From contig CAWBJH010000001.1 in NCBI GenBank assembly GCA_963789115.1, positions 1,225,419 to 1,289,418 on the forward strand: a stretch of 64,000 bases of DNA, in the 5' to 3' direction. Position 1 is the first letter of the stretch; every line of letters starts with the position of its first letter. Both the position numbers and the translations under genes were made by a program. Below are positions 3,866 through 53,513 of this stretch, piece by piece. The notes beneath the pieces were generated by a model. The model did no database searches and was not told the DNA's origin. It saw only the letters and a list, made by a program, of their open reading frames with translations. This stretch comes from an uncultured delta proteobacterium (GTDB taxonomy: Bacteria > Desulfobacterota > Binatia > Binatales > Binataceae).

Positions 3866-6475
<2,610 letters not shown>

Positions 6476-6599
6476 GACTGTACTCCAAGCTAACCACTTT
6501 TCGGCCCCCGGCAAACGGGGCAGCCGCGGCCCTCTGCGCAGGCGGGTCGCAGAGCCGCCCTGCGAACGATTTGCCAATCAGGCTGCAAGCCGACCGGCG

Positions 6600-7943
6600 C
6601 TACGCGCCGGCGATCGTCATCTCGCTCAGCTTGAGGCTCGGGGAGGCGGTCGAGGAACGCCAACGCAGGTCGTTGCCGATCATCTCGATCGACTGAAACA
6701 TATCGGTCAGGTTGCCGGCGATCGTGATCTCCTGGACCGGGTAGGCAAGCTCGCCGTCCTCGATCCAAAGCCCGCTCGCGCCGCGCGAATAGTCACCGGT
6801 CACCAGGTTGACGCCGAAACCGATCAGTTCGGTGACGTACAGTCCGTGCTTGACCGAGCGGATGATCTCTTCGGGCGAGTACGGGCCGGGCTGGAGATAG
6901 AGGTTGGTCGGACTCACCGAGGGCGCCTCGCCCACGCCGCGCGCCGCATTGCCGGTGGGCTTCAAGCCGAGCTTGCGCGCTGAATAACAGTCGAGCAGGT
7001 AGCTCGACAGCACGCCCTTCTCCACGATCGCCTTGCGCGTGGTCGCAAGCCCCTCGCCGTCGAAGGGCTTCGAGCCAAGCCCGCCCGCAATCGTCCCGTC
7101 GTCGAGGATCGTCACATTGGGCGAGGCCACTTGCGCTGCGAGCTTGCCCACCAGGAACGAAGCCCCGCGATAGAGCGAAGGACCCGAGGCCGCGCCCGCC
7201 ATCGAGCGGATTAGCCCCGCCGCGATCTCCGGGTCGAAGACCACCGGCGCGCGGGTGGTCTTGATCTTGCGCGCGCCGAGGCGCCGCAGCGCGCGGCGCG
7301 CCGCGGTGAGTCCGACCGATTCGGGCTCTTCGAGCCGGTCGTAGCGGCGGTCAGCCGTGTACCAGTAGTCGCGCTGCATCCCGTCGGCGTCCTGCGCAAC
7401 CGGCACCACCGTCAGGCTGTAGGAGGTACCCGCGTACTCGCCGGAGAATCCCTGGCTGTTGGCGAACAGCACCTCGTAGCAGCCCGAATCGAACTCCGCG
7501 CCCTCGGAGTTCTTGATTCGCGCGTCGAGCTTGAGCGCCGCGTTTTCGGCCCTGCGCGCGATCTGCAGGGCATGGTCGGCGTCGATGATCCGATGCTCGC
7601 GGTCGTCGAGCTCGAGCTCGACGAGATGGCGCGGATGAAGCGACGGTTCGGGCAGGCCGGAACACGGATCGCTCGCCGTCAGACGGGCCATCTGCACGGT
7701 CTGCGCGATGAAGTCCTCGAGCGCGTCGCGCTCCAAATCGGCCGTGGCGGACGTCGCCGAGGACTGTCCGGTGAAAACCCGAAGCCCCAGACGCCGCTCG
7801 CGCGAACTCTTAAGCTTCTCAACTTCGCCCAGCCGCACGCCCGCCGAGAGCGACTCGGCGCCGACGATCATGATCTCGGCGGCGCTCGCCCCCGCGTGCG
7901 AGGCCCGGCCAAGCGCCCATTGCGCCAGTTCCAGTTGCGCCAT
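6600..7943 (-). CDS. pmbA: TldE/PmbA-family metalloprotease
   Basis: 447-aa ORF with PmbA/TldD-fold composition. Adjacent to tldD. Confidence 0.8.
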   Translation of the reverse strand: MAQLELAQWALGRASHAGASAAEIMIVGAESLSAGVRLGEVEKLKSSRERRLGLRVFTGQSSATSATADLERDALEDFIAQTVQMARLTASDPCSGLPEPSLHPRHLVELELDDREHRIIDADHALQIARRAENAALKLDARIKNSEGAEFDSGCYEVLFANSQGFSGEYAGTSYSLTVVPVAQDADGMQRDYWYTADRRYDRLEEPESVGLTAARRALRRLGARKIKTTRAPVVFDPEIAAGLIRSMAGAASGPSLYRGASFLVGKLAAQVASPNVTILDDGTIAGGLGSKPFDGEGLATTRKAIVEKGVLSSYLLDCYSARKLGLKPTGNAARGVGEAPSVSPTNLYLQPGPYSPEEIIRSVKHGLYVTELIGFGVNLVTGDYSRGASGLWIEDGELAYPVQEITIAGNLTDMFQSIEMIGNDLRWRSSTASPSLKLSEMTIAGA

Positions 7944-7955
7944 TGGTCTCCCCTG

Positions 7956-9404
7956 TCAGGCCCTGGTGCCGCCGACCGTGATTCCGTCGACCCTCAGCGT
8001 CGGCAGCCCTACTCCCACCGGTACCGACTGCCCGTCCTTGCCGCAGGTGCCGATCCCGGAGTCGAGCTCGAGGTCATTGCCGACCATCGAGACCTTGGTC
8101 AGCACGTCGGGGCCGTTGCCGATAAGCGTCGCGCCCTTGACCGGCCGGGTCACGTGTCCGTCCTCGATCAGGTAAGCTTCGCTCGCAGAGAACACGAACT
8201 TGCCATTGGTAATATCGACCTGTCCGCCGCCGAAGCTGACCGCGTAGAGCCCGCGCTGGACGGAGCGGATTATCTCCTCGGCGGTGGAGTCGCCGGCCAA
8301 CATGAAGGTGTTGGTCATCCGCGGCATCGGGCTGTGCGCGAAGCTTTCGCGCCGCCCGTTCCCGGTCGGCGCCATGCTCATCAGCCGCGCGTTGAGCCGG
8401 TCCTGCAGGTAGCCGCGCAGGATTCCCTTCTCGATCAGCACGGTGCGCGAGGTCGGGGTGCCTTCGTCGTCAACGTTGAGGCTGCCGCGCCGATTAGGGA
8501 TGGTGCCGTCGTCAACCACGGTGCAAAGCTCGCTCGCCACGCGCTCGCCGATACGGTTGGCAAAGGCCGATACGCCCTTGCGGTTGAAGTCGCCTTCGAG
8601 TCCGTGGCCGACAGCCTCGTGCAGTATGATTCCCGGCCATCCATGGCCCAGCACCACGACCATTTCGCCGGCCGGCGCGTCGATCGCGTCGAGGTTGACC
8701 AGCGCCTGCCGGACCGCCTCGCGCGCGTACTGTTTCCATCGCTCGTTCTCGAGCAGGTAGCTATATTCGACGCGCCCGCCGCCGCCGAAGCTGCCGACTT
8801 GCCGATTGCCGCCCTCCTCGGCGATCACGCTTACCTGAAGCCTGCACAGCGGCTGCACGTCGGCCGCGATTCGCCCCTCGCTGTTGACGATCAACACCAC
8901 TTTGCGCTCCGCCGCCATCGACGCCATCACCTTCTTTACCCGCGGGTCGGCGGCGCGCGCGGCCTTGTCGATCTCGTTGAGCAGCTTGACCTTGTCCTCG
9001 AGCGGAATTTCCAGGGGGGTGGTCTGAAGGTCGTAAAGCGAATGCCGGCGGACGGACCCGCCGACCTGGACCGCGTCGCGCGGGCCGCTGCGCTGGTCGG
9101 CGATCGCGCGCGCCGCCTCCGCCGCGATCCGCATCCGCTCGACCGTGACCTCGTCGGAGTAGGCATAGCCGGTGCGATCCTCGGCGCAAACCCGCACGCC
9201 CACCCCGTGGCTAAGACTCTTGCTGGTCCGGTTGACCATCGATTCCTCGAGGCTGAGCCCTTCGGCGTCGCGGTACTCGAAGTAGAGATCCGCGTAGTCG
9301 GCCTTGCGCTCGAGCGCCTTTTCCAGGATGCGCTCGAAGGTGCGCTCGCTCATGCCGAAACGGGTGAGGAAGAACTTTTCGGGTGCGGCGAGTTGGTTTG
9401 CCAT
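7956..9404 (-). CDS. tldD: TldD-family metalloprotease
   Basis: 482-aa ORF with the conserved HExxxGH-type TldD core (ILHEAVGHGLEGDFNRKG). Confidence 0.88.
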   Translation of the reverse strand: MANQLAAPEKFFLTRFGMSERTFERILEKALERKADYADLYFEYRDAEGLSLEESMVNRTSKSLSHGVGVRVCAEDRTGYAYSDEVTVERMRIAAEAARAIADQRSGPRDAVQVGGSVRRHSLYDLQTTPLEIPLEDKVKLLNEIDKAARAADPRVKKVMASMAAERKVVLIVNSEGRIAADVQPLCRLQVSVIAEEGGNRQVGSFGGGGRVEYSYLLENERWKQYAREAVRQALVNLDAIDAPAGEMVVVLGHGWPGIILHEAVGHGLEGDFNRKGVSAFANRIGERVASELCTVVDDGTIPNRRGSLNVDDEGTPTSRTVLIEKGILRGYLQDRLNARLMSMAPTGNGRRESFAHSPMPRMTNTFMLAGDSTAEEIIRSVQRGLYAVSFGGGQVDITNGKFVFSASEAYLIEDGHVTRPVKGATLIGNGPDVLTKVSMVGNDLELDSGIGTCGKDGQSVPVGVGLPTLRVDGITVGGTRA

Positions 9405-9573
9405 CGTGAATCTCCGCCTGGCCTTTCACCGATCAGTGTATTATCCGCGCCCTCTCGCCTGCCAGCGGCGAGTTTTCGCCAGCCTGGGCCGTCCGCGAGT
9501 GGTTCCGAGCTTTCGGTCGAGTCGGTCACCCCGACGCGCAGCGCTTCTGCGCCCTCCCCCTATGTGGCAGCTT

Positions 9574-9623
9574 CCTTCTGAGCCCTCTCCCTATGAAATG
9601 GGAGAGGGCCTGGGTGAGGGACC
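9574..9623. repeat. Left terminal inverted repeat (TIR type 2) abutting the DUF559-1 stop codon
   Basis: ccttctgagccctctccctatgaaatgggagagggcctgggtgagggacc. It is an inverted copy of 9976-10027 and is itself an internal palindrome (ccctctccc / gggagaggg). Confidence 0.65.
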
Positions 9624-9958
9624 TACAGGTGCTTGAGAATCTCTTCAAGTACGCCGTCGATGTTGGTCAGCACGTCAGTGTCCCAAAACCTCAGCACGCG
9701 GAAACCAAGCTTGCGCAGGTAGGCACTCCGGCGCTCGTCTCTCGCCTGCTGTGTGGCGTGCTGGCCGCCGTCGAGTTCGATCACGAGCGGGCGCTCGAGG
9801 CAGCAGAAGTCGGCGACAAAGGGTCGGATCGGGTACTGCCGGCGAAATTTCACGCCCAGTTGCCGCGCGCGCAGCCGCATCCAGAGTCTGCGCTCGGCGT
9901 CGGTCTGATCGCGGCGCAAACGTCGGGCGAGATCGCGCATCAGGGGCCGCTTCGACAC
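9623..9958 (-). CDS. DUF559 endonuclease-domain protein (Vsr-like fold), copy 1
   Basis: 111 aa with the hallmark DUF559 pattern (...AERRLWMRLRARQLGVKFRRQYPIRPFVADFCCLERPLVIELDGGQHA...VLRFWDTDVL). Confidence 0.85.
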   Translation of the reverse strand: MSKRPLMRDLARRLRRDQTDAERRLWMRLRARQLGVKFRRQYPIRPFVADFCCLERPLVIELDGGQHATQQARDERRSAYLRKLGFRVLRFWDTDVLTNIDGVLEEILKHL

Positions 9959-9975
9959 GAGGGAACAATATCAAA

Positions 9976-10027
9976 GGTCCCTCACCCAAACCCTCTCCCA
10001 CTGATCATAGGGAGAGGGCTCAGAAGG
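9976..10027. repeat. Right terminal inverted repeat (TIR type 2) upstream of DUF559-1
   Basis: ggtccctcacccaaaccctctcccactgatcatagggagagggctcagaagg. Its reverse complement matches 9574-9623 at ~90%. Confidence 0.65.
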
Positions 10028-10072
10028 AACCAAACCCCGACAACGGAGCGCGGGAGGCAGGCGCGGGAAAAA

Positions 10073-10108
10073 GTCCCTCACCCACGCCCTCTCCCGTTGA
10101 TCATAGGG
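10073..10108. repeat. Degenerate extra half-copy of TIR type 2
   Basis: gtccctcacccacgccctctcccgttgatcataggg. The right stem arm has degenerated. Confidence 0.4.
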
Positions 10109-10254
10109 TCGGGTAGGACGATGGCGCTAACCGGACTTCGAATGATGCCGACGTTTCCATCGTCCCCCTAAGATTCCGTACGGCGGGTTTTCGCCAGGTC
10201 ATGGATCCGGGCTAAGATGGCGCCGTGGCCTCCGATCCACGCGAAACGCTGCCG

Positions 10255-10476
10255 ATGATTGACCGGCTCCTGCTCGCGCTAATCGAGCAGCAGGAGCGCA
10301 AGGTGCTGGAGTTGGGACGCCGGATTCATCCGGGGCTCACGGCCGAGGACATTCGCAATCCGCACGACTTCCCGGCCCTGATGGGGAGCGCAGAGTGGAA
10401 CTTCGAGGACGGCATCCTGGCGGGGCTGAGAAGCGCCCACATGGCTCTCAGAGCCAAGCTGCTGGAAGAGAAGTAA
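10255..10476 (+). CDS. Hypothetical small protein (73 aa from ATG; track ORF starts at GTG 10225)
   Basis: MIDRLLLALIEQQERKVLELGRRIHPGLTAEDIRNPHDFPALMGSAEWNFEDGILAGLRSAHMALRAKLLEEK. The codon third-position bias matches the host. No homology recognised. Confidence 0.4.
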   Translation: MIDRLLLALIEQQERKVLELGRRIHPGLTAEDIRNPHDFPALMGSAEWNFEDGILAGLRSAHMALRAKLLEEK

Positions 10477-10564
10477 AGAGCCGGGTTCCCCTTTTCTTTT
10501 CGTAGCCGGCCTTCCCGCGCCGGTGGCGAGTGCCGGTTCTCCCTGTAGCGCCGGCCTCCGTGCC

Positions 10565-10600
10565 GGTTCTTTTTCTGGTTCTTTTTCTGGTTCTTTTTCT
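10565..10600. repeat. Perfect 12-bp tandem repeat x3 (ggttctttttct)
   Basis: Three exact tandem units. A single-unit homologue of the surrounding sequence is present at ~53437-53465 in inverted orientation. Confidence 0.85.
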
Positions 10601-10844
10601 GTAGCAGGGGCACGCGACGCGGGTCGCGACACGTCACGAAAGAAACAGGGCTCTGCAACTGAATATATGTTGAATGTGGAGTTGCCTCCGCCCCTGCAGG
10701 GCGGATGGGATTTAACGGGCCGATACCCAGGGCGTTGCCCCATAGGCGCTAACCTAAGGTCTAAGCGCTGGGGAGATGGGGAAGGTGAATTGCGCAGGCG
10801 CAAACGGTCGGCGAGTACTGAGGCCGGGGCGCCGGCATATGCTG

Positions 10845-10930
10845 CCCTCGCCCGCATCTTTAGCGGGAGAGGGCAAGCGGCGCGGCAATTGCTCCTTTTT
10901 GCAATCGCCGTGACGCGCGGGTGAGGGTGC
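10845..10930. repeat. Left terminal inverted repeat (TIR type 1, composite hairpin element) downstream of DUF559-2
   Basis: ccctcgcccgcatctttagcgggagagggcaagcggcgcggcaattgctcctttttgcaatcgccgtgacgcgcgggtgagggtgc. Contains a 16-bp perfect-stem hairpin (ggcg(a/g)attgc...gcaatcgcc). Confidence 0.7.
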
Positions 10931-10958
10931 CGGGTCTGCTGCTCAGGGCCTAATCTCA

Positions 10959-11327
10959 CTAGCGGCTGCCGAAGCAGGCCAGAATATTGCTGAGCACTCC
11001 ATCGAGATTCTCAAGTACATCGGTATTCCAAAATCGCACCACCCGATACTTCTGACCTGCAAGCAGGCGCGTCCGCCGCGTGTCGTAGGCTTGCTGTTCA
11101 TGATGCTGTCCGCCGTCAACCTCGACGATCAGCTTCTCCTGCTGACAGACAAAGTCCACGATGAACGGTTCTTTGCGGGCTTGGCGGCGGAATTTGCGCC
11201 CCGCCAGTCGTCGGTCGCGCAGTGCGCCCCACAGTTTTCCCTCTGCGTCGGTTGCATTGACGCGCAGTTCGCGTGAACGCGCAAGCGCAGTCGCCTCGGC
11301 AGGAGCAATTCGAAAAAAACGCCGCAC
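10959..11327 (-). CDS. DUF559 endonuclease-domain protein, copy 2
   Basis: 122 aa: ...AEGKLWGALRDRRLAGRKFRRQARKEPFIVDFVCQQEKLIVEVDGGQHH...VVRFWNTDVL. Paralogous to copy 1. Confidence 0.85.
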   Translation of the reverse strand: MRRFFRIAPAEATALARSRELRVNATDAEGKLWGALRDRRLAGRKFRRQARKEPFIVDFVCQQEKLIVEVDGGQHHEQQAYDTRRTRLLAGQKYRVVRFWNTDVLENLDGVLSNILACFGSR

Positions 11328-11343
11328 TTCGAGCAGGATAGCA

Positions 11344-11429
11344 GCACCCTCACCCGCGCGTCACGGCGATTGCGAGAAGAAGCAATCGCCGCGCCGCTTG
11401 CCCTCTCCCACTAAAAATGTGGGAGAGGG
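11344..11429. repeat. Right terminal inverted repeat (TIR type 1), reverse-complement copy of 10845-10930
   Basis: gcaccctcacccgcgcgtcacggcgattgcgagaagaagcaatcgccgcgccgcttgccctctcccactaaaaatgtgggagaggg. About 90% identical to rc(10845-10930) and to the solo copy at 52309-52384. Confidence 0.7.
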
Positions 11430-11469
11430 AGGACACGCGCCTCGTCCCCGTCTCACATCAACTCTTAAG

Positions 11470-11504
11470 TTAGCGCTTATGGGGCGTTGCCCCATGGGCG
11501 CTAA
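11470..11504. repeat. REP-like palindromic hairpin
   Basis: ttagcgcttatggggcgttgccccatgggcgctaa is a perfect inverted repeat. Partial copies occur at 10731-10754, 11917-11935 and 53514-53550. Confidence 0.7.
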
Positions 11505-11505
11505 C

Positions 11506-11566
11506 TTAACAGCACCAAAGCCAGTGGGGCGGGCGTCCGTCAGTGGGGCGGGCGTCCCTGCCCGCC
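11506..11566. repeat. Left inverted repeat flanking the RAYT remnant (includes tandem duplication cagtggggcgggcgtcc x2)
   Basis: ttaacagcaccaaagccagtggggcg matches 11882-11920 at 25/26 as a reverse complement. Confidence 0.7.
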
Positions 11567-11876
11567 ATGGACGTCAGCGAGGGGGAGCGCTACCAATCAG
11601 GCGTTTGTGGTGATGAATGATCACGTTCACGTGTTGCTGAGCACGATGGAGCCTTACCGGCTGGAAGACGTGATCCATTCATGGAAGTCGTTTACAGCTA
11701 ACCGGATGCAGCGCGACCACGGCCGCCGCGGGCGCGTGTGGCAGGACGAGTACCTTGATCGGATGGTTCGCGACGAGCAGGAATTGGTGCAAAAGTCCGA
11801 CTACATCCAGGGCAACCCTTGGACTCGATGGCCGAACCTTGAGGCATACCGTTGGGTGTGGCCGGGAGATGGTTGA
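11562..11876 (+). pseudogene. REP-associated tyrosine transposase (RAYT / IS200-like HuH Y1) remnant, N-terminally truncated
   Basis: The open frame encodes ...NQAFVVMNDHVHVLL (HuH motif) ...SWKSFTANRM... GRVWQDEYLDRMVRDEQELVQKSDYIQGNPW, collinear with the C-terminal two-thirds of E. coli YafM-type RAYTs. The N-terminal ~50 aa core is absent, and the frame upstream runs into repeat sequence. Confidence 0.7.
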
Positions 11877-11881
11877 GCGGC

Positions 11882-11920
11882 GGGCAGGGACGCGCGCCCC
11901 ACTGGCTTTGGTGCTGTTAG
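11882..11920. repeat. Right inverted repeat flanking the RAYT remnant
   Basis: gggcagggacgcgcgccccactggctttggtgctgttag is the reverse complement of the left IR. Confidence 0.7.
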
Positions 11921-11962
11921 GTTAGCGCCTATGCTTGCGCAACCTGTGGGCGGAAACGCAGC

Positions 11963-12412
11963 CTAGCCGGCGGCGGCGGCGGCGCGGGGCCGTTCGCGCT
12001 GCGGCTCTTTCTTCGCGGCGGCCTTCTTGCGCGGCTTTTTGGCCTTGGCCTCTTGCTCGCCACCGGTGAACTCGATGATCGAGAGATCGGCGGCGTCGCC
12101 GCGGCGAAAGCCGTACTTGACCACGCGAGTGTACCCGCCGGGGCGATCCTTGAAGCGCGGCGCGATCTCGTCGAACAGCTTCTTGACCGCATCGCGCGAC
12201 TGGATGAAGGAAAACGCGCGGCGCCGCGCGGCCAGGTCGCCTTGCTTGCCCAGCGTTACCATCCGGTCCGCATAGCGGCGCAGCTCCTTGGCCTTGGCGT
12301 CGGTGGTGCGGATGCGTCCGCTGCGAATCAGCGCAAGCACCAGGTTGCGAAACAGGGCCTTGCGATGAGCGGAGGTGCGGTTGAGCTTGCGGCCCTGATT
12401 TAGATGACGCAT
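11963..12412 (-). CDS. rplQ: 50S ribosomal protein L17 with Lys/Ala-rich C-terminal extension
   Basis: [24 protein letters not shown]... is the canonical L17 N-terminus. It is the last gene of the alpha operon. The ~30-aa tail reads [25 protein letters not shown]. Confidence 0.92.
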
Positions 12413-44337: not shown

Positions 44338-44508
44338 AATCTTTTTCACCTATCGGGCACGAGCCGCGAATCGCACCCGCGTTCCTGTCGTGGCCATCGA
44401 AAATCTTCGCCTCGCATGCTTCTCTCACCAATCCGGCGCGAGCGGACGACATGTCGCGATCCGCTCGTTGTCAAAGGTCGTTACCCCGCATGCCGGCCTG
44501 GCTAAGTA

Positions 44509-44581
44509 AGCCCACGACGGGAATCGAACCCGTGACCTCTTCCTTACCAAGGAAGTGCTCTTCCGACTGAGCTACATGGGC
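44509..44581 (-). tRNA. tRNA-Thr (anticodon GGT)
   Basis: GCCCATGTAGCTCAGTCGGAAGAGCACTTCCTTGGTAAGGAAGAGGTCACGGGTTCGATTCCCGTCGTGGGCT. Cloverleaf checked by hand. Confidence 0.9.
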
Positions 44582-44625
44582 ATACGTTTCTGTCGTGCGC
44601 AAACTCGCGCTCGTCGCCGGCATTC

Positions 44626-44701
44626 TGGAGCGGGAAACGGGACTCGAACCCGCGACCCCGAGCTTGGAAGGCTCGCGCTCTACCAACTGAGCTATTCCCG
44701 C
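44626..44701 (-). tRNA. tRNA-Gly (anticodon TCC)
   Basis: GCGGGAATAGCTCAGTTGGTAGAGCGCGAGCCTTCCAAGCTCGGGGTCGCGGGTTCGAGTCCCGTTTCCCGCTCCA. Confidence 0.9.
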
Positions 44702-44722
44702 TCTCCCTCTTCCGGCGCCAAA

Positions 44723-44808
44723 TGGTGGAGAGGGGAGGATTCGAACCTCCGAAGGCATAAGCCGGCAGATTTACAGTCTGCTCCCTTTGGCCGCTCGGGA
44801 ACCTCTCC
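44723..44808 (-). tRNA. tRNA-Tyr (anticodon GTA), class II with long variable arm
   Basis: GGAGAGGTTCCCGAGCGGCCAAAGGGAGCAGACTGTAAATCTGCCGGCTTATGCCTTCGGAGGTTCGAATCCTCCCCTCTCCACCA. Confidence 0.9.
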
Positions 44809-44828
44809 CCAAGCTTTCCGTCGCGACA

Positions 44829-44901
44829 AGCCGATGGCCGGAATCGAACCGGCAACCTACTGATTACAAGTCAGTTGCTCTTCCGATTGAGCTACATCGG
44901 C
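44829..44901 (-). tRNA. tRNA-Thr (anticodon TGT)
   Basis: GCCGATGTAGCTCAATCGGAAGAGCAACTGACTTGTAATCAGTAGGTTGCCGGTTCGATTCCGGCCATCGGCT. Confidence 0.9.
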
Positions 44902-50921: not shown

Positions 50922-52308
50922 TGTACGGACGGGAGACATAGGTAACAGGTGTACGGAGACATGGGTAACACATTTTGGGTGGCCGTGGGTTGCCCACAAG
51001 GTCCACAGGCGCTGGGATCGAATGAAGGATCCCGCCTGTGGACTTGTGGACAACCCACGGTGAAACGTTAGTCGGTGGCATCGGTGAGATTGGTTTGATT
51101 GAGGTCGATCACAGCGACCACTTGATGACAGAACAGCACCTCACGTTGGGAGTCGGAAAGGGGGCCAGGACGGAGCGCAACCGGCAAGCCGCGCAGCCCC
51201 TTGCTGACCCGGAACTCGCGTCCGCGATAGCTGAAGTAGCCCTCGGCCTGCACCTTGCGCACCTCGAGGCCGGCCGGATATTCGATCGGCGGCAGGTGCT
51301 CGGGGAAGGGGATCGAACTGGGGCGATAGCGGCTGGCAGGAGTGGCCAGCCCGAGCGCGTCATGTGGGCGCAGCAGGTTGTAGCGGTCGCGAAAGCGGTC
51401 GAACTCGCGCTGGCAATGGTCGAGGTCGGTGAAGTTGAAGTGGCGCAAGAGTTCGAACCGCAAGGTGCGATGGAAGCGTTCATCTTTGCCCTGGGTCTGG
51501 GGATGGCAGGGACGCCCGTGGATGACTTTGATCCCCAGCCGGATCAGCCACAGGCCGAGCCGGGTGTAGGGATGCTCGCGGCCGCCCCACGGCCCGCCGT
51601 TGTCCATCAACATCGCGGCCGGTAAGCCGTAGCGGCGGAAGACCACGGTCAACGCCGCGCGCACGGTGTCGCCAAGCTCATCGGCACAGGCCTGCAACGC
51701 CAGGGAGAAGCGCGAATGGTCGTCGAGTGCGGTCAGCGGATGGCAGCGCGCGTTGGAAAGCAGCGCGAAGTGGCCCTTGAAATCCATCTGCCACAAGTGA
51801 TTAGGCCCGCTGCGTTCGAAGCGTTGCCAGGGAGTAGCTGCGGCGGCCAGCTCGGGGTTGAGCAAGCCGGCGCGGCGCAGGATGCCGGTCACGGTACTGG
51901 GCGCCAAGTGCGGCCCGCCTTGGCCGAGCAGTTGACGGGACAACTTGCGGCCGCCCCAGCAGTTGCGCGACTGCGCCCGCAGCCGAATTACTTCCTGCTC
52001 AATCCCGGCTGCGGTGCGCGCCGGGCTGCGCCGCGGGCGGCGCGAGCGGTCTTTAAGTCCGCTCGGCCCTTCCCGCCTATGGCGCGCGAGCCACTTGTAG
52101 CCGGTCTTGGCCGAAATCCCGAAGCGCCGGCACAACTCACGCCGATTGCTTCCCGCTTGCATCGCCAGTTGCACGAACTCCTCCCGCAACGACACTCGAG
52201 TAACCTCCCGCCACGGCATCCCGGTCACCTCCTGGTGGAGGTCCAGCATGCCGGTTAGGTGTTACCCATGTCCTCGCACACCTGTTACCCATGTCCCGCG
52301 CACAAACA
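50922..52308 (-). mobile_element. IS481-family insertion sequence (1387 bp) with imperfect ~50-bp terminal IRs and a 7-bp target duplication (catcttt)
   Basis: The ends read TGTACGGACGGGAGACAT... and ...ATGTCCCGCGCACAAACA, with an internal gacatgggtaacac duplication in each IR. Direct repeat catcttt is at 50915-50921 and 52309-52315. Confidence 0.8.
51068..52249 (-). CDS. IS481-family DDE transposase (integrase core / rve domain)
   Basis: 393 aa with an N-terminal HTH (...RELCRRFGISAKTGYKWLARHR...) and a DDE core (...HLWQMDFKG...LMDNGGPWGG...HPQTQGKDERFHRTL...). Confidence 0.9.
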   Translation of the reverse strand: MLDLHQEVTGMPWREVTRVSLREEFVQLAMQAGSNRRELCRRFGISAKTGYKWLARHRREGPSGLKDRSRRPRRSPARTAAGIEQEVIRLRAQSRNCWGGRKLSRQLLGQGGPHLAPSTVTGILRRAGLLNPELAAAATPWQRFERSGPNHLWQMDFKGHFALLSNARCHPLTALDDHSRFSLALQACADELGDTVRAALTVVFRRYGLPAAMLMDNGGPWGGREHPYTRLGLWLIRLGIKVIHGRPCHPQTQGKDERFHRTLRFELLRHFNFTDLDHCQREFDRFRDRYNLLRPHDALGLATPASRYRPSSIPFPEHLPPIEYPAGLEVRKVQAEGYFSYRGREFRVSKGLRGLPVALRPGPLSDSQREVLFCHQVVAVIDLNQTNLTDATD

Positions 52309-52384
52309 CATCTTTAGTGGGAGAGGGCAAGCGTCACGGCGATTGCTTCTTTTTGCAATCGCCGTGACGCGCGGGTGAGGGTGC
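52309..52384. repeat. Solo copy of TIR type 1 composite hairpin element; its left hairpin arm lies at 50905-50921 on the other side of the IS481
   Basis: catctttagtgggagagggcaagcgtcacggcgattgcttctttttgcaatcgccgtgacgcgcgggtgagggtgc is ~95% identical to 10845-10930. Confidence 0.75.
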
Positions 52385-53340: not shown

Positions 53341-53513
53341 ACCGGGATTCGCGTTGCTTACGCGGAAGGGTACGCCGCCTCTTTCATGTGCGCACCTGAT
53401 CCACAACTTTCGGTAATAGCTCAGAAAAAGAACCGGCACAGAGGCCGGCGCTGCGAAAGAAGAACAAAGAAGCCGCTCTCCCCCTTTGCCAATAGACGCC
53501 GAACGCAGATGAC

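Follow-up and report, generated by a model that had tools for sequence, protein, structure and literature searches.

The BoxC / PIT / TMECO repeats form a family of intrastrand-triplex repeats that is present in hundreds of bacterial genomes and has been linked to genome instability. BoxC was reported from Escherichia coli in the 1990s and re-described in 2000 by the Maher group (as cited in PMC4666352), and the consensus of the triplex motif is CCCTCNCCC-N3-6-GGGNGAGGG-N3-GGGNGAGGG (Holder et al. 2015, PMC4666352). Formation of an intrastrand triplex in vitro was demonstrated for the E. coli motif only, and TMECO loci in E. coli are rearrangement-prone, more so among strains than control sites (PMC4666352). 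Holder et al. did not report a candidate mobility enzyme near the repeats (PMC4666352); in the literature searched, no gene was reported to be associated with BoxC / PIT / TMECO, and no work linking the BoxC/TMECO repeat to DUF559 or ycjD was found. DUF559 is a large family of Vsr-like nucleases that includes E. coli ycjD. The only functional datum for the family concerns Caulobacter VsrA, a DUF559 protein that damages DNA in vivo and sets off the SOS response when a cytosine methyltransferase is absent (PMC12907096). The present analysis concerns a stretch of 64,000 nucleotides from an uncultured delta proteobacterium of the family Binataceae (hereafter, the window), in which two DUF559 genes, DUF559-1 and DUF559-2, are each bracketed by inverted copies of a structured repeat (cassettes 1 and 2, respectively).

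Judged from sequence, there is about an even chance that DUF559 and the triplex repeats constitute a REPtron-like nuclease-repeat system, in which DUF559 is the cognate enzyme of the repeats. A nuclease acting at the repeats, as RAYT acts at REP, would fit the data as a whole better than a transposon with private terminal inverted repeats (TIRs); a preliminary description of the locus had raised both. The region is bounded by tldD (7956-9404, minus strand) and rplQ (11963-12412, minus strand), and the two DUF559 open reading frames (ORFs) within it lie on the minus strand. The parts of the two cassettes are as follows.

9623-9958, minus strand: DUF559-1, 111 amino acids, predicted stand-alone Vsr-fold (PD-(D/E)XK) nuclease (Pfam DUF559, E = 6e-39)
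9572-9624, plus strand: TIR-A on the 3' side of DUF559-1, a BoxC-type triplex motif (inverted repeats; outer limit of the three-copy unit)
9975-10029, minus strand: inverted copy of TIR-A on the 5' side of DUF559-1 (inverted-repeat search and three-copy alignment)
10959-11327, minus strand: DUF559-2, 122 amino acids, predicted stand-alone Vsr-fold nuclease (Pfam DUF559, E = 7e-38)
10845-10930, plus strand: TIR-B on the 3' side of DUF559-2, a triplex motif with loop 2 enlarged to a hairpin of its own (inverted repeat, family alignment and pair counts)
11344-11429, minus strand: inverted copy of TIR-B on the 5' side of DUF559-2 (inverted-repeat search)

The outer inverted repeat of cassette 1 (9572-9596 / 10005-10029) comprises 25 nt at 100% complementarity, and the inner one (9599-9624 / 9975-10000) comprises 26 nt at 92% and abuts the stop codon of DUF559-1. 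In cassette 2, the inverted repeat (10845-10930 / 11344-11429) spans 86 nt at 91% complementarity and lies 28 nt and 16 nt from the ORF. The repeat search and Pfam thus confirm that both DUF559 genes are enclosed as the preliminary description had proposed. Its statement that no transposase lies within either cassette also stands, as a Pfam scan of the ORFs yielded DUF559 as the only family-matching ORF there.

The cassette arms belong to the BoxC / PIT / TMECO family and are not cassette-specific TIRs. Towards the gene, each arm consists of a pyrimidine segment (CCCTCTCCC or CCCTCGCCC), a loop, the complement GGGAGAGGG, a second loop and GGGTGAGGG, so that the G-rich third segment of each cassette arm faces the gene. 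The TIR-A at 9572-9624 reads TTCCTTCTGA followed by CCCTCTCCC-loop-GGGAGAGGG-CCT-GGGTGAGGG and fits all three segments of the TMECO consensus; the three-segment pattern is found in TIR-A as CCCTCTCCC / GGGAGAGGG / GGGTGAGGG and in TIR-B as CCCTCGCCC / GGGAGAGGG / GGGTGAGGG. Loop 1 measures 8-11 nt and is longer than the N3-6 of the E. coli consensus, whereas loop 2 is 3 nt in TIR-A, as in the consensus (N3), and a hairpin of ~45 nt in TIR-B. A first, strict hairpin pattern had no match in the window, as the loops exceed the lengths it assumed. The gggtgaggg core, which the preliminary description had noted as common to the two repeat families, is indeed shared by both arm types, but it is not merely a shared core, being the third strand of the triplex.

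The arms carry covariation of the kind expected for such a structure. In the asymmetric motifs of DUF559 loci, the third segment agrees better with the mirror image of the second in 49 cases and with a direct copy in none (7 ties), and a mirror-image third segment, with T or A opposite A, is the exact requirement of an antiparallel purine-motif third strand. Through compensatory changes, the loop-2 hairpin of TIR-B is retained in 64 copies, with 95% of cells paired; 5 of its 12 pairs have been altered on both sides, and the observed score was reached in none of 500 shuffles. The G.A mismatch of the first hairpin (CCCTCGCCC / GGGAGAGGG) is kept in 60 of 63 TIR-B copies, and the same G.A "mm" variant predominates in E. 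coli (PMC4666352). Several cassettes have arms whose loop-2 hairpins are unlike each other and yet each self-complementary, which implies that each arm is constrained separately. This difference between the arms rules out long-range arm-arm pairing in the transcript as the selected feature. An Rfam scan of 9300-12100 at E <= 1 returned a single match, by chance, to an antizyme frameshift element, and the arms are therefore not a described RNA family.

Bracketing of this kind is a general property of the DUF559 subfamily. A set of 80 loci encoding relatives of the two proteins was assembled with one genome per species, of which 75 were testable; the best inverted repeat across each gene was scored against displaced intervals of the same size (408 controls, 99th percentile). 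Flanking inverted repeats above this threshold were found at 62 of the 75 DUF559 loci and at 5 of the 408 controls. The loci above the threshold belong to Alpha-, Beta- and Gammaproteobacteria, Binatia, Nitrospira, Dehalococcoidia, Gastranaerophilales, a relative of Bdellovibrio and others, and the module CCCTCTCCC-loop-GGGAGAGGG-N-GGGTGAGGG is common to all of their arms. The units of the DUF559 loci have a median span of 487 bp, with arms of 43.5 nt at the median, and the similarity of the arms frequently extends 5-25 nt past the motif core. At least 45 of the 75 loci have the orientation "+ upstream, - downstream", with the motif directed towards the gene on both sides, and the pure opposite occurs at three. 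Three further DUF559 genes, met by chance in other loci, also possess these arms. The density of matching hairpins is 2.6 per kb up to 200 nt from the gene, compared with 0.12 per kb over the remainder of the same loci. The alternative put forward in the preliminary description, namely generic intergenic palindromes without enrichment around DUF559 genes, does not hold, because the repeats are ~22-fold enriched beside these genes.

Both cassette proteins are predicted to be YcjD-like stand-alone Vsr-fold PD-(D/E)XK nucleases. DUF559-1 and DUF559-2 match Pfam DUF559 (PF04480) with 132.7 and 129.3 bits, respectively, against a curated cut-off of 20.6, and their Pfam matches are confined to DUF559 and MTES_1575. 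The catalytic D...E-x-D-G-G-Q-H motif, common to the Vsr-fold family, is kept, and D58, E69, D71, Q74, H75, R98 and W100 are invariant among 36 aligned DUF559 sequences. The closest solved structure to DUF559-2 is 3HRL from Neisseria gonorrhoeae (E = 9e-24). The nearest homologue of DUF559-2 (L203), the best among 5.8 billion proteins, is 66% identical and has the same arm type. The two features that would assign the proteins to Vsr very-short-patch repair, a Vsr match and linkage to a C5-cytosine methyltransferase, were not found: the Pfam Vsr family is not among the matches of the cassette proteins, and a cytosine methyltransferase is absent among the adjacent genes, the rest of the window not having been scanned for methyltransferases. 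The cassettes are not a known defence system either, because the PADLOC matches were weak and partial and concerned the nuclease domains of the large defence proteins Hhe and DpdF.

Assembly GCA_049279895.1 contains cassette 1 three times, each time at a different locus (in the window, in L332 and in L333), as a unit of 451-458 bp. In a three-way alignment the homology runs from TCCTTCTGAGCCCTCTCCC to GGGAGAGGGCTCAGAAGGA, which are the outer ends of the repeats; beyond these the sequences are unrelated. Identity among the copies is broadly 92-95%, and the DUF559-1 paralogues at the other two loci are 94-95% identical; between the window and L332, the ORF differs at 26 of 336 positions, with 16 synonymous and 7 non-synonymous codon changes, which shows purifying selection on the DUF559-1 ORF. 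The L333 copy of DUF559-1 has a 2-nt deletion. Because the three copies lie in one assembly and their homology stops at the repeat ends, the data support the view that cassette 1 acts as a discrete movable unit. The three insertion sites show no visible target-site duplication, and in the DNA examined TIR-A ends were found only in the six cassette arms and in a partial copy at 9543-9567. A sequence (T)TCTGCGCC just outside one end resembles the element end TTCTGAGCC in 3/3 copies; this resemblance is too weak to be claimed as a target preference. Recent movement of cassette 2 is unsupported, the nearest homologue of its protein being only 66% identical in the search mentioned above. Of the proposal that both are TIR-bounded mobile cassettes, the part concerning cassette 1, with its three sharp-ended copies, is thus retained, whereas cassette 2 shows no sign of recent movement.

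Comparison with relatives revealed presence/absence polymorphism at the site, with L331 and L330 both lacking the cassettes. In L331, a member of the Binataceae (~80-85% nucleotide identity), the homologue of an 83-amino-acid ORF is separated from rplQ by 150 nt that contain no more than a solo motif, and the window has ~1.35 kb more there, corresponding to cassette 2 and a RAYT module. In L330 (93-97% identical in tldD/pmbA), neither a cassette nor a motif occurs in the 335 bases of its contig upstream of tldD. The tldD-pmbA-clpB segment (window 3867-9404) is inverted relative to L331 6001-12175, with cassette 1 at one breakpoint, and the L331 segment is edged by inverted triplex motifs at ~5635-5715 and ~12190-12300. 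MacB/FtsX genes of L331 are missing from window 3867-9404.

The repeats also occur abundantly apart from the gene. The generic motif was found in at least 120 viral contigs, and a 22-mer specific to TIR-B, the type of the cassette-2 arms, in at least 120 metagenome contigs. As motif copies rarely adjoin DUF559, the arms are to be regarded as members of abundant, mostly solo repeat families that far outnumber DUF559 genes, and the earlier idea of TIRs private to each cassette is abandoned. In being dispersed, intergenic and multi-copy, they resemble the other BoxC / PIT / TMECO repeats. A comparison of the motif region of a viral contig with E. coli by megablast gave no match. The window itself contains a dispersed solo copy of the second repeat, which the preliminary description had correctly recognized and which is of the same subtype as the cassette-2 arms. 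This copy and two partial copies near the cassettes are the following.

52307-52384, plus strand: solo TIR-B-type triplex motif, 78 nt, 94% complementary to 11344-11421 (inverted and direct repeats)
9543-9567, plus strand: incomplete tandem copy of the outer end of TIR-A (GCTTCTGCGCCCTCCCCCTATGTGG), immediately beyond cassette 1 (fuzzy pattern search)
10069-10108, minus strand: additional, incomplete TIR-A-like triplex motif (88% direct repeat of 9973-10012)

The motif at 10069-10108 may represent an older solo repeat of this site, and L331 has solo motifs at the equivalent junctions. The first segment of the solo motif at 52307-52384 is replaced at the junction with an insertion sequence of the IS481 family, the transposase gene of which (rve, LZ_Tnp_IS481; Pfam) abuts the motif, the gene and the motif together occupying 51068-52384 of the window. 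TIR-B copies in L204, L224 and L235 are cut off at one identical position and joined to ...CATTTTCATAGCAGA, and this fixed truncation point suggests another element that inserts at a set point in the motif.

With regard to genomic distribution, DUF559 homologues were found in 34 of 72,556 plasmid records and 2 of 50,697 phage records, all at <60% identity, and this scarcity and low identity rule out a plasmid- or phage-borne element. Within Sphingomonadales one position, yqeY-[cassette]-dnaG-rpoD, is maintained, and some loci carry a copy between carA and carB instead or in addition; the gene is in opposite orientations relative to carA/carB in L018 and L022. Together with the distant nearest homologue of DUF559-2 and the divergent paralogues in other genomes with two DUF559 loci, this distribution speaks against an ordinary selfish element and is similar to what is reported for RAYTs, which are likewise rare on plasmids and in phages. 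In E. coli, the interval between fabI and sapF (K-12, L201 1351039-1351828; L324) is occupied by one of two alternatives, either ycjD with a BoxC copy and a duplicated fragment of the ycjD 3' end, or the eefRABCD efflux operon. The ycjD alternative is present in 3346 of 5426 E. coli genomes. In K-12, fabI neighbours ycjD, which is followed 165 nt downstream by a TMECO copy; the first BoxC element to be described lay beside envM (fabI). The junction sequences of the ycjD and eefRABCD alternatives show no motif-mediated mechanism, and the right-hand junction falls within the terminator hairpin of sapF. Extra motif matches number ~3.4 in ycjD+ and ~1.9 in ycjD- E. coli genomes, a comparison that is not used as evidence because phylogeny and megablast word size confound it. 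Between hrpB and mrcB, an inverted doublet of K-12 (L325 350-442) is missing as a unit of ~100 nt in M160133, and in strain 7_14_50A it is reduced to a single plain hairpin through a deletion between 9-nt direct repeats in the two motifs. No clear target-site duplication is visible at this doublet when L325 is compared with L326 and L327.

In a REPtron-like system of this type, the gene and both arms would together make up the autonomous, or formerly autonomous, element, and the solo and doublet repeats, which are far commoner, would be its gene-less derivatives, on which the enzyme acts in trans. The nuclease would recognize the folded repeat, as a hairpin or triplex in single-stranded DNA, and nick there, after which host repair or replication would copy the unit or the repeat elsewhere without target-site duplication. 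The wider proposal, that YcjD-like DUF559 nucleases create and spread the BoxC / PIT / TMECO repeats, that the ~450-bp transposase-free cassette is a new class of mobile element relying on structure-specific nicking and host repair, and that this is a second, independent REPIN-RAYT-like system built on the PD-(D/E)XK fold, is put forward tentatively, as rather less likely than not. Several points weigh against DUF559 as the cognate enzyme. A PD-(D/E)XK nuclease cannot rejoin DNA, so that mobility would need further host steps. Detectable arms are absent in 13 of the 75 loci, and E. coli ycjD has motifs on its 3' side only. The motif is present in viral contigs without a DUF559 gene, only 1 of 94 generic instances in viral contigs being near one, and none of 82 TIR-B-type metagenome copies stands beside one (in 66 of these, enough contig was available on the inner side to reveal the gene). 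DUF559-2 is without a close relative, and the other genomes with two DUF559 loci (L002, L062 and L037/L067) hold divergent paralogues, which makes multi-copy proliferation exceptional.

It is possible, though rather unlikely, that the repeats and doublets spread independently and that DUF559, as a free-standing endonuclease of the homing type, cleaves solo repeats or doublets that have no gene; repair of the break from a filled copy via arm homology would then leave the gene between inverted arms without target-site duplication. Gene-less "+ then -" doublets are indeed found in E. coli (5 pairs) and at L030, L036 and L073, one E. coli doublet is either there in full or missing altogether, the site of cassette 2 holds a solo motif in L331, and the lack of a visible target-site duplication at cassette 1 agrees with such a route. 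PD-(D/E)XK dimers typically cleave palindromic sites. A Vsr-fold homing endonuclease, I-Bth0305I, also exists (listed in PMC3424549). However, neither a gene-less TIR-A doublet nor a solo TIR-A end was found in the DNA examined, a gene landing in a solo motif would split the motif instead of duplicating it, and the arms of E. coli doublets are heterotypic (type A and type B), whereas cassette arms are homotypic and alike beyond the core. Mere coincidence, by which an abundant intergenic repeat fell by chance on both sides of two small genes, could appeal to the great abundance of the TIR-B family and to the locus being a repeat-rich hotspot, but it is effectively refuted by the 62/75 against 5/408 contrast, the ~22-fold enrichment, the fixed orientation and the arm similarity beyond the core.

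DUF559 could also be a passenger, that is, cargo such as a repair or defence nuclease that frequently gets caught between two repeats, with another trans-acting enzyme or host recombination at structure-prone DNA moving or recombining the repeats. The repeats vastly outnumber the gene and are present without it in viral contigs, these intergenic regions gather many repeat types (REP-like repeats, the RAYT remnant and other hairpins), triplex-motif loci are recombination-prone (PMC4666352), and the inversion relative to L331 is edged there by inverted motifs. What makes this account improbable is that other genes are almost never bracketed so (5/408 control intervals), whereas members of this one gene family are bracketed across distant phyla and with a fixed orientation; in addition, the ORF of the duplicated unit is under purifying selection, and no candidate for the moving enzyme near the repeats was reported by Holder et al. 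(PMC4666352). An equally doubtful explanation is control in cis, in which the arms regulate or insulate a potentially toxic nuclease gene through a fold in the transcript or the DNA, or recombine with each other and so invert the gene as an on/off switch. It would leave three exact copies at unrelated loci and thousands of solo copies unexplained; moreover, PIT elements had neither promoter nor terminator activity in earlier work, and purine-motif triplexes do not form in RNA (both in the introduction of PMC4666352), whereas the covariation is of the triplex type. In favour of control in cis, a survey of predicted "programmed inversion" targets flanked by inverted repeats lists "DUF559 domain-containing protein" as enriched, without comment, at an odds ratio of 14.3 (PMC9881135). 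The gene is found in both orientations relative to carA/carB (L018 and L022), the motif lies just 20-60 nt from the start codon, and in Sphingomonadales the arms have been conserved through vertical descent, their segments being invariant and their loops variable.

The surroundings of the cassettes contain further small repeats. The neighbours of the cassettes are tldD, the 83-amino-acid ORF, a RAYT remnant and rplQ. The remnant is a truncated IS200/RAYT-like ORF at 11607-11876 (plus strand) that covers positions 48-120 of the 121 of the Y1_Tnp profile and lies between inverted repeats of its own (11493-11566 / 11879-11933). A different palindrome (GGGCGTTGCCCCATGGGCGCTAAC) has copies at 10730-10757 and 11462-11512, and the interval 11462-11933 is a decayed REPtron adjoining the DUF559 cassettes. 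A hairpin with a T-run (GCCGGCCTCCGTGCCGGTTCTTTTTCTG) occurs at 10547-10602 and 53422-53452 of the window and at L332 5866-5892, and three tandem copies of GTTCTTTTTCTG come after it in the window. This is a further small dispersed repeat or possibly a terminator. At window 44508-44901, three direct repeats of 74 nt with 64-74% identity resemble a cluster of minus-strand tRNA genes.

Some of the DUF559 loci in other genomes have unusual arrangements of the motif. In a gammaproteobacterial metagenome-assembled genome (MAG), five or six triplex-motif units are arranged in tandem with a period of ~145 nt beside a DUF559 locus (L011 4614-5363). An inverted triplex doublet at L073 2657-2754 apparently lies within a stop-to-stop ORF matching carA and could be an in-frame insertion or reflect a mis-delimited ORF. 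At L036 3495-4540 a complete inverted doublet comes after a DUF559 gene, and the last 28 nt of the gene together with the doublet recur ~545 nt downstream; the start of the doublet spacer resembles the inner flank of a cassette (AAAGCAG...CAGAAT). L008 (a Nitrospira MAG) and L025 (a Binatia MAG) share flanking genes and an unusual arm type, ACTCCCCCC-TTG-GGGGGGAGT ... GGTGGGGGG, and this sharing could be due to horizontal transfer of a larger block or to mis-binning.

DUF559 is the first candidate partner enzyme for the BoxC / triplex repeat family, and pairing the two makes both puzzles jointly testable. If the nuclease-repeat system is as proposed, repeat-associated domesticated nucleases would reach beyond the RAYT/HUH fold, and intrastrand triplex DNA would gain a biological role in bacteria. 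Among known systems, insertion sequences and MITEs (miniature inverted-repeat transposable elements) share with the cassettes the terminal inverted repeats, the near-identical sharp-ended copies at unrelated loci and the gene-less derivatives; the cassette (~455 bp) differs in that it has neither a transposase of a known class nor a target-site duplication, DUF559 being its sole family-matching ORF. Homing endonuclease genes, including that of I-Bth0305I, are likewise small nuclease genes with presence/absence polymorphism and without target-site duplication or transposase, whereas the cassette lies outside introns, inteins and phages (2/50,697), has structured inverted repeats and occupies non-allelic sites. 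Vsr and Vsr-like proteins (E. coli Vsr, VsrA and 3HRL) agree in fold and family, but the cassette proteins have no match to Pfam Vsr among those listed and no cytosine methyltransferase among the adjacent genes, and this DUF559 subfamily is not known to act in mismatch repair. The BoxC / PIT / TMECO repeats correspond in the pyrimidine segment, its complement and the G-rich mirror third segment, in the G.A variant, and in their intergenic, dispersed occurrence and inverted doublets, whereas the cassette repeats have a loop 1 of 8-11 nt, carry a ~45-nt hairpin as loop 2 in TIR-B, and bracket DUF559. Compared with REPtrons and REPIN-RAYT systems, the cassette enzyme has the PD-(D/E)XK Vsr fold in place of HUH/Y1, Y1_Tnp being found only in the neighbouring ORF at 11607-11876; the repeat is triplex-forming, in contrast to a GTAG-tagged palindrome, and the gene is multi-copy in this genome. 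The cassettes and these systems are alike in having a low-copy, mostly chromosomal gene flanked by inverted structured repeats that otherwise occur as gene-less singlets and doublets, in being rare on plasmids, and in holding one site through long descent in some clades.

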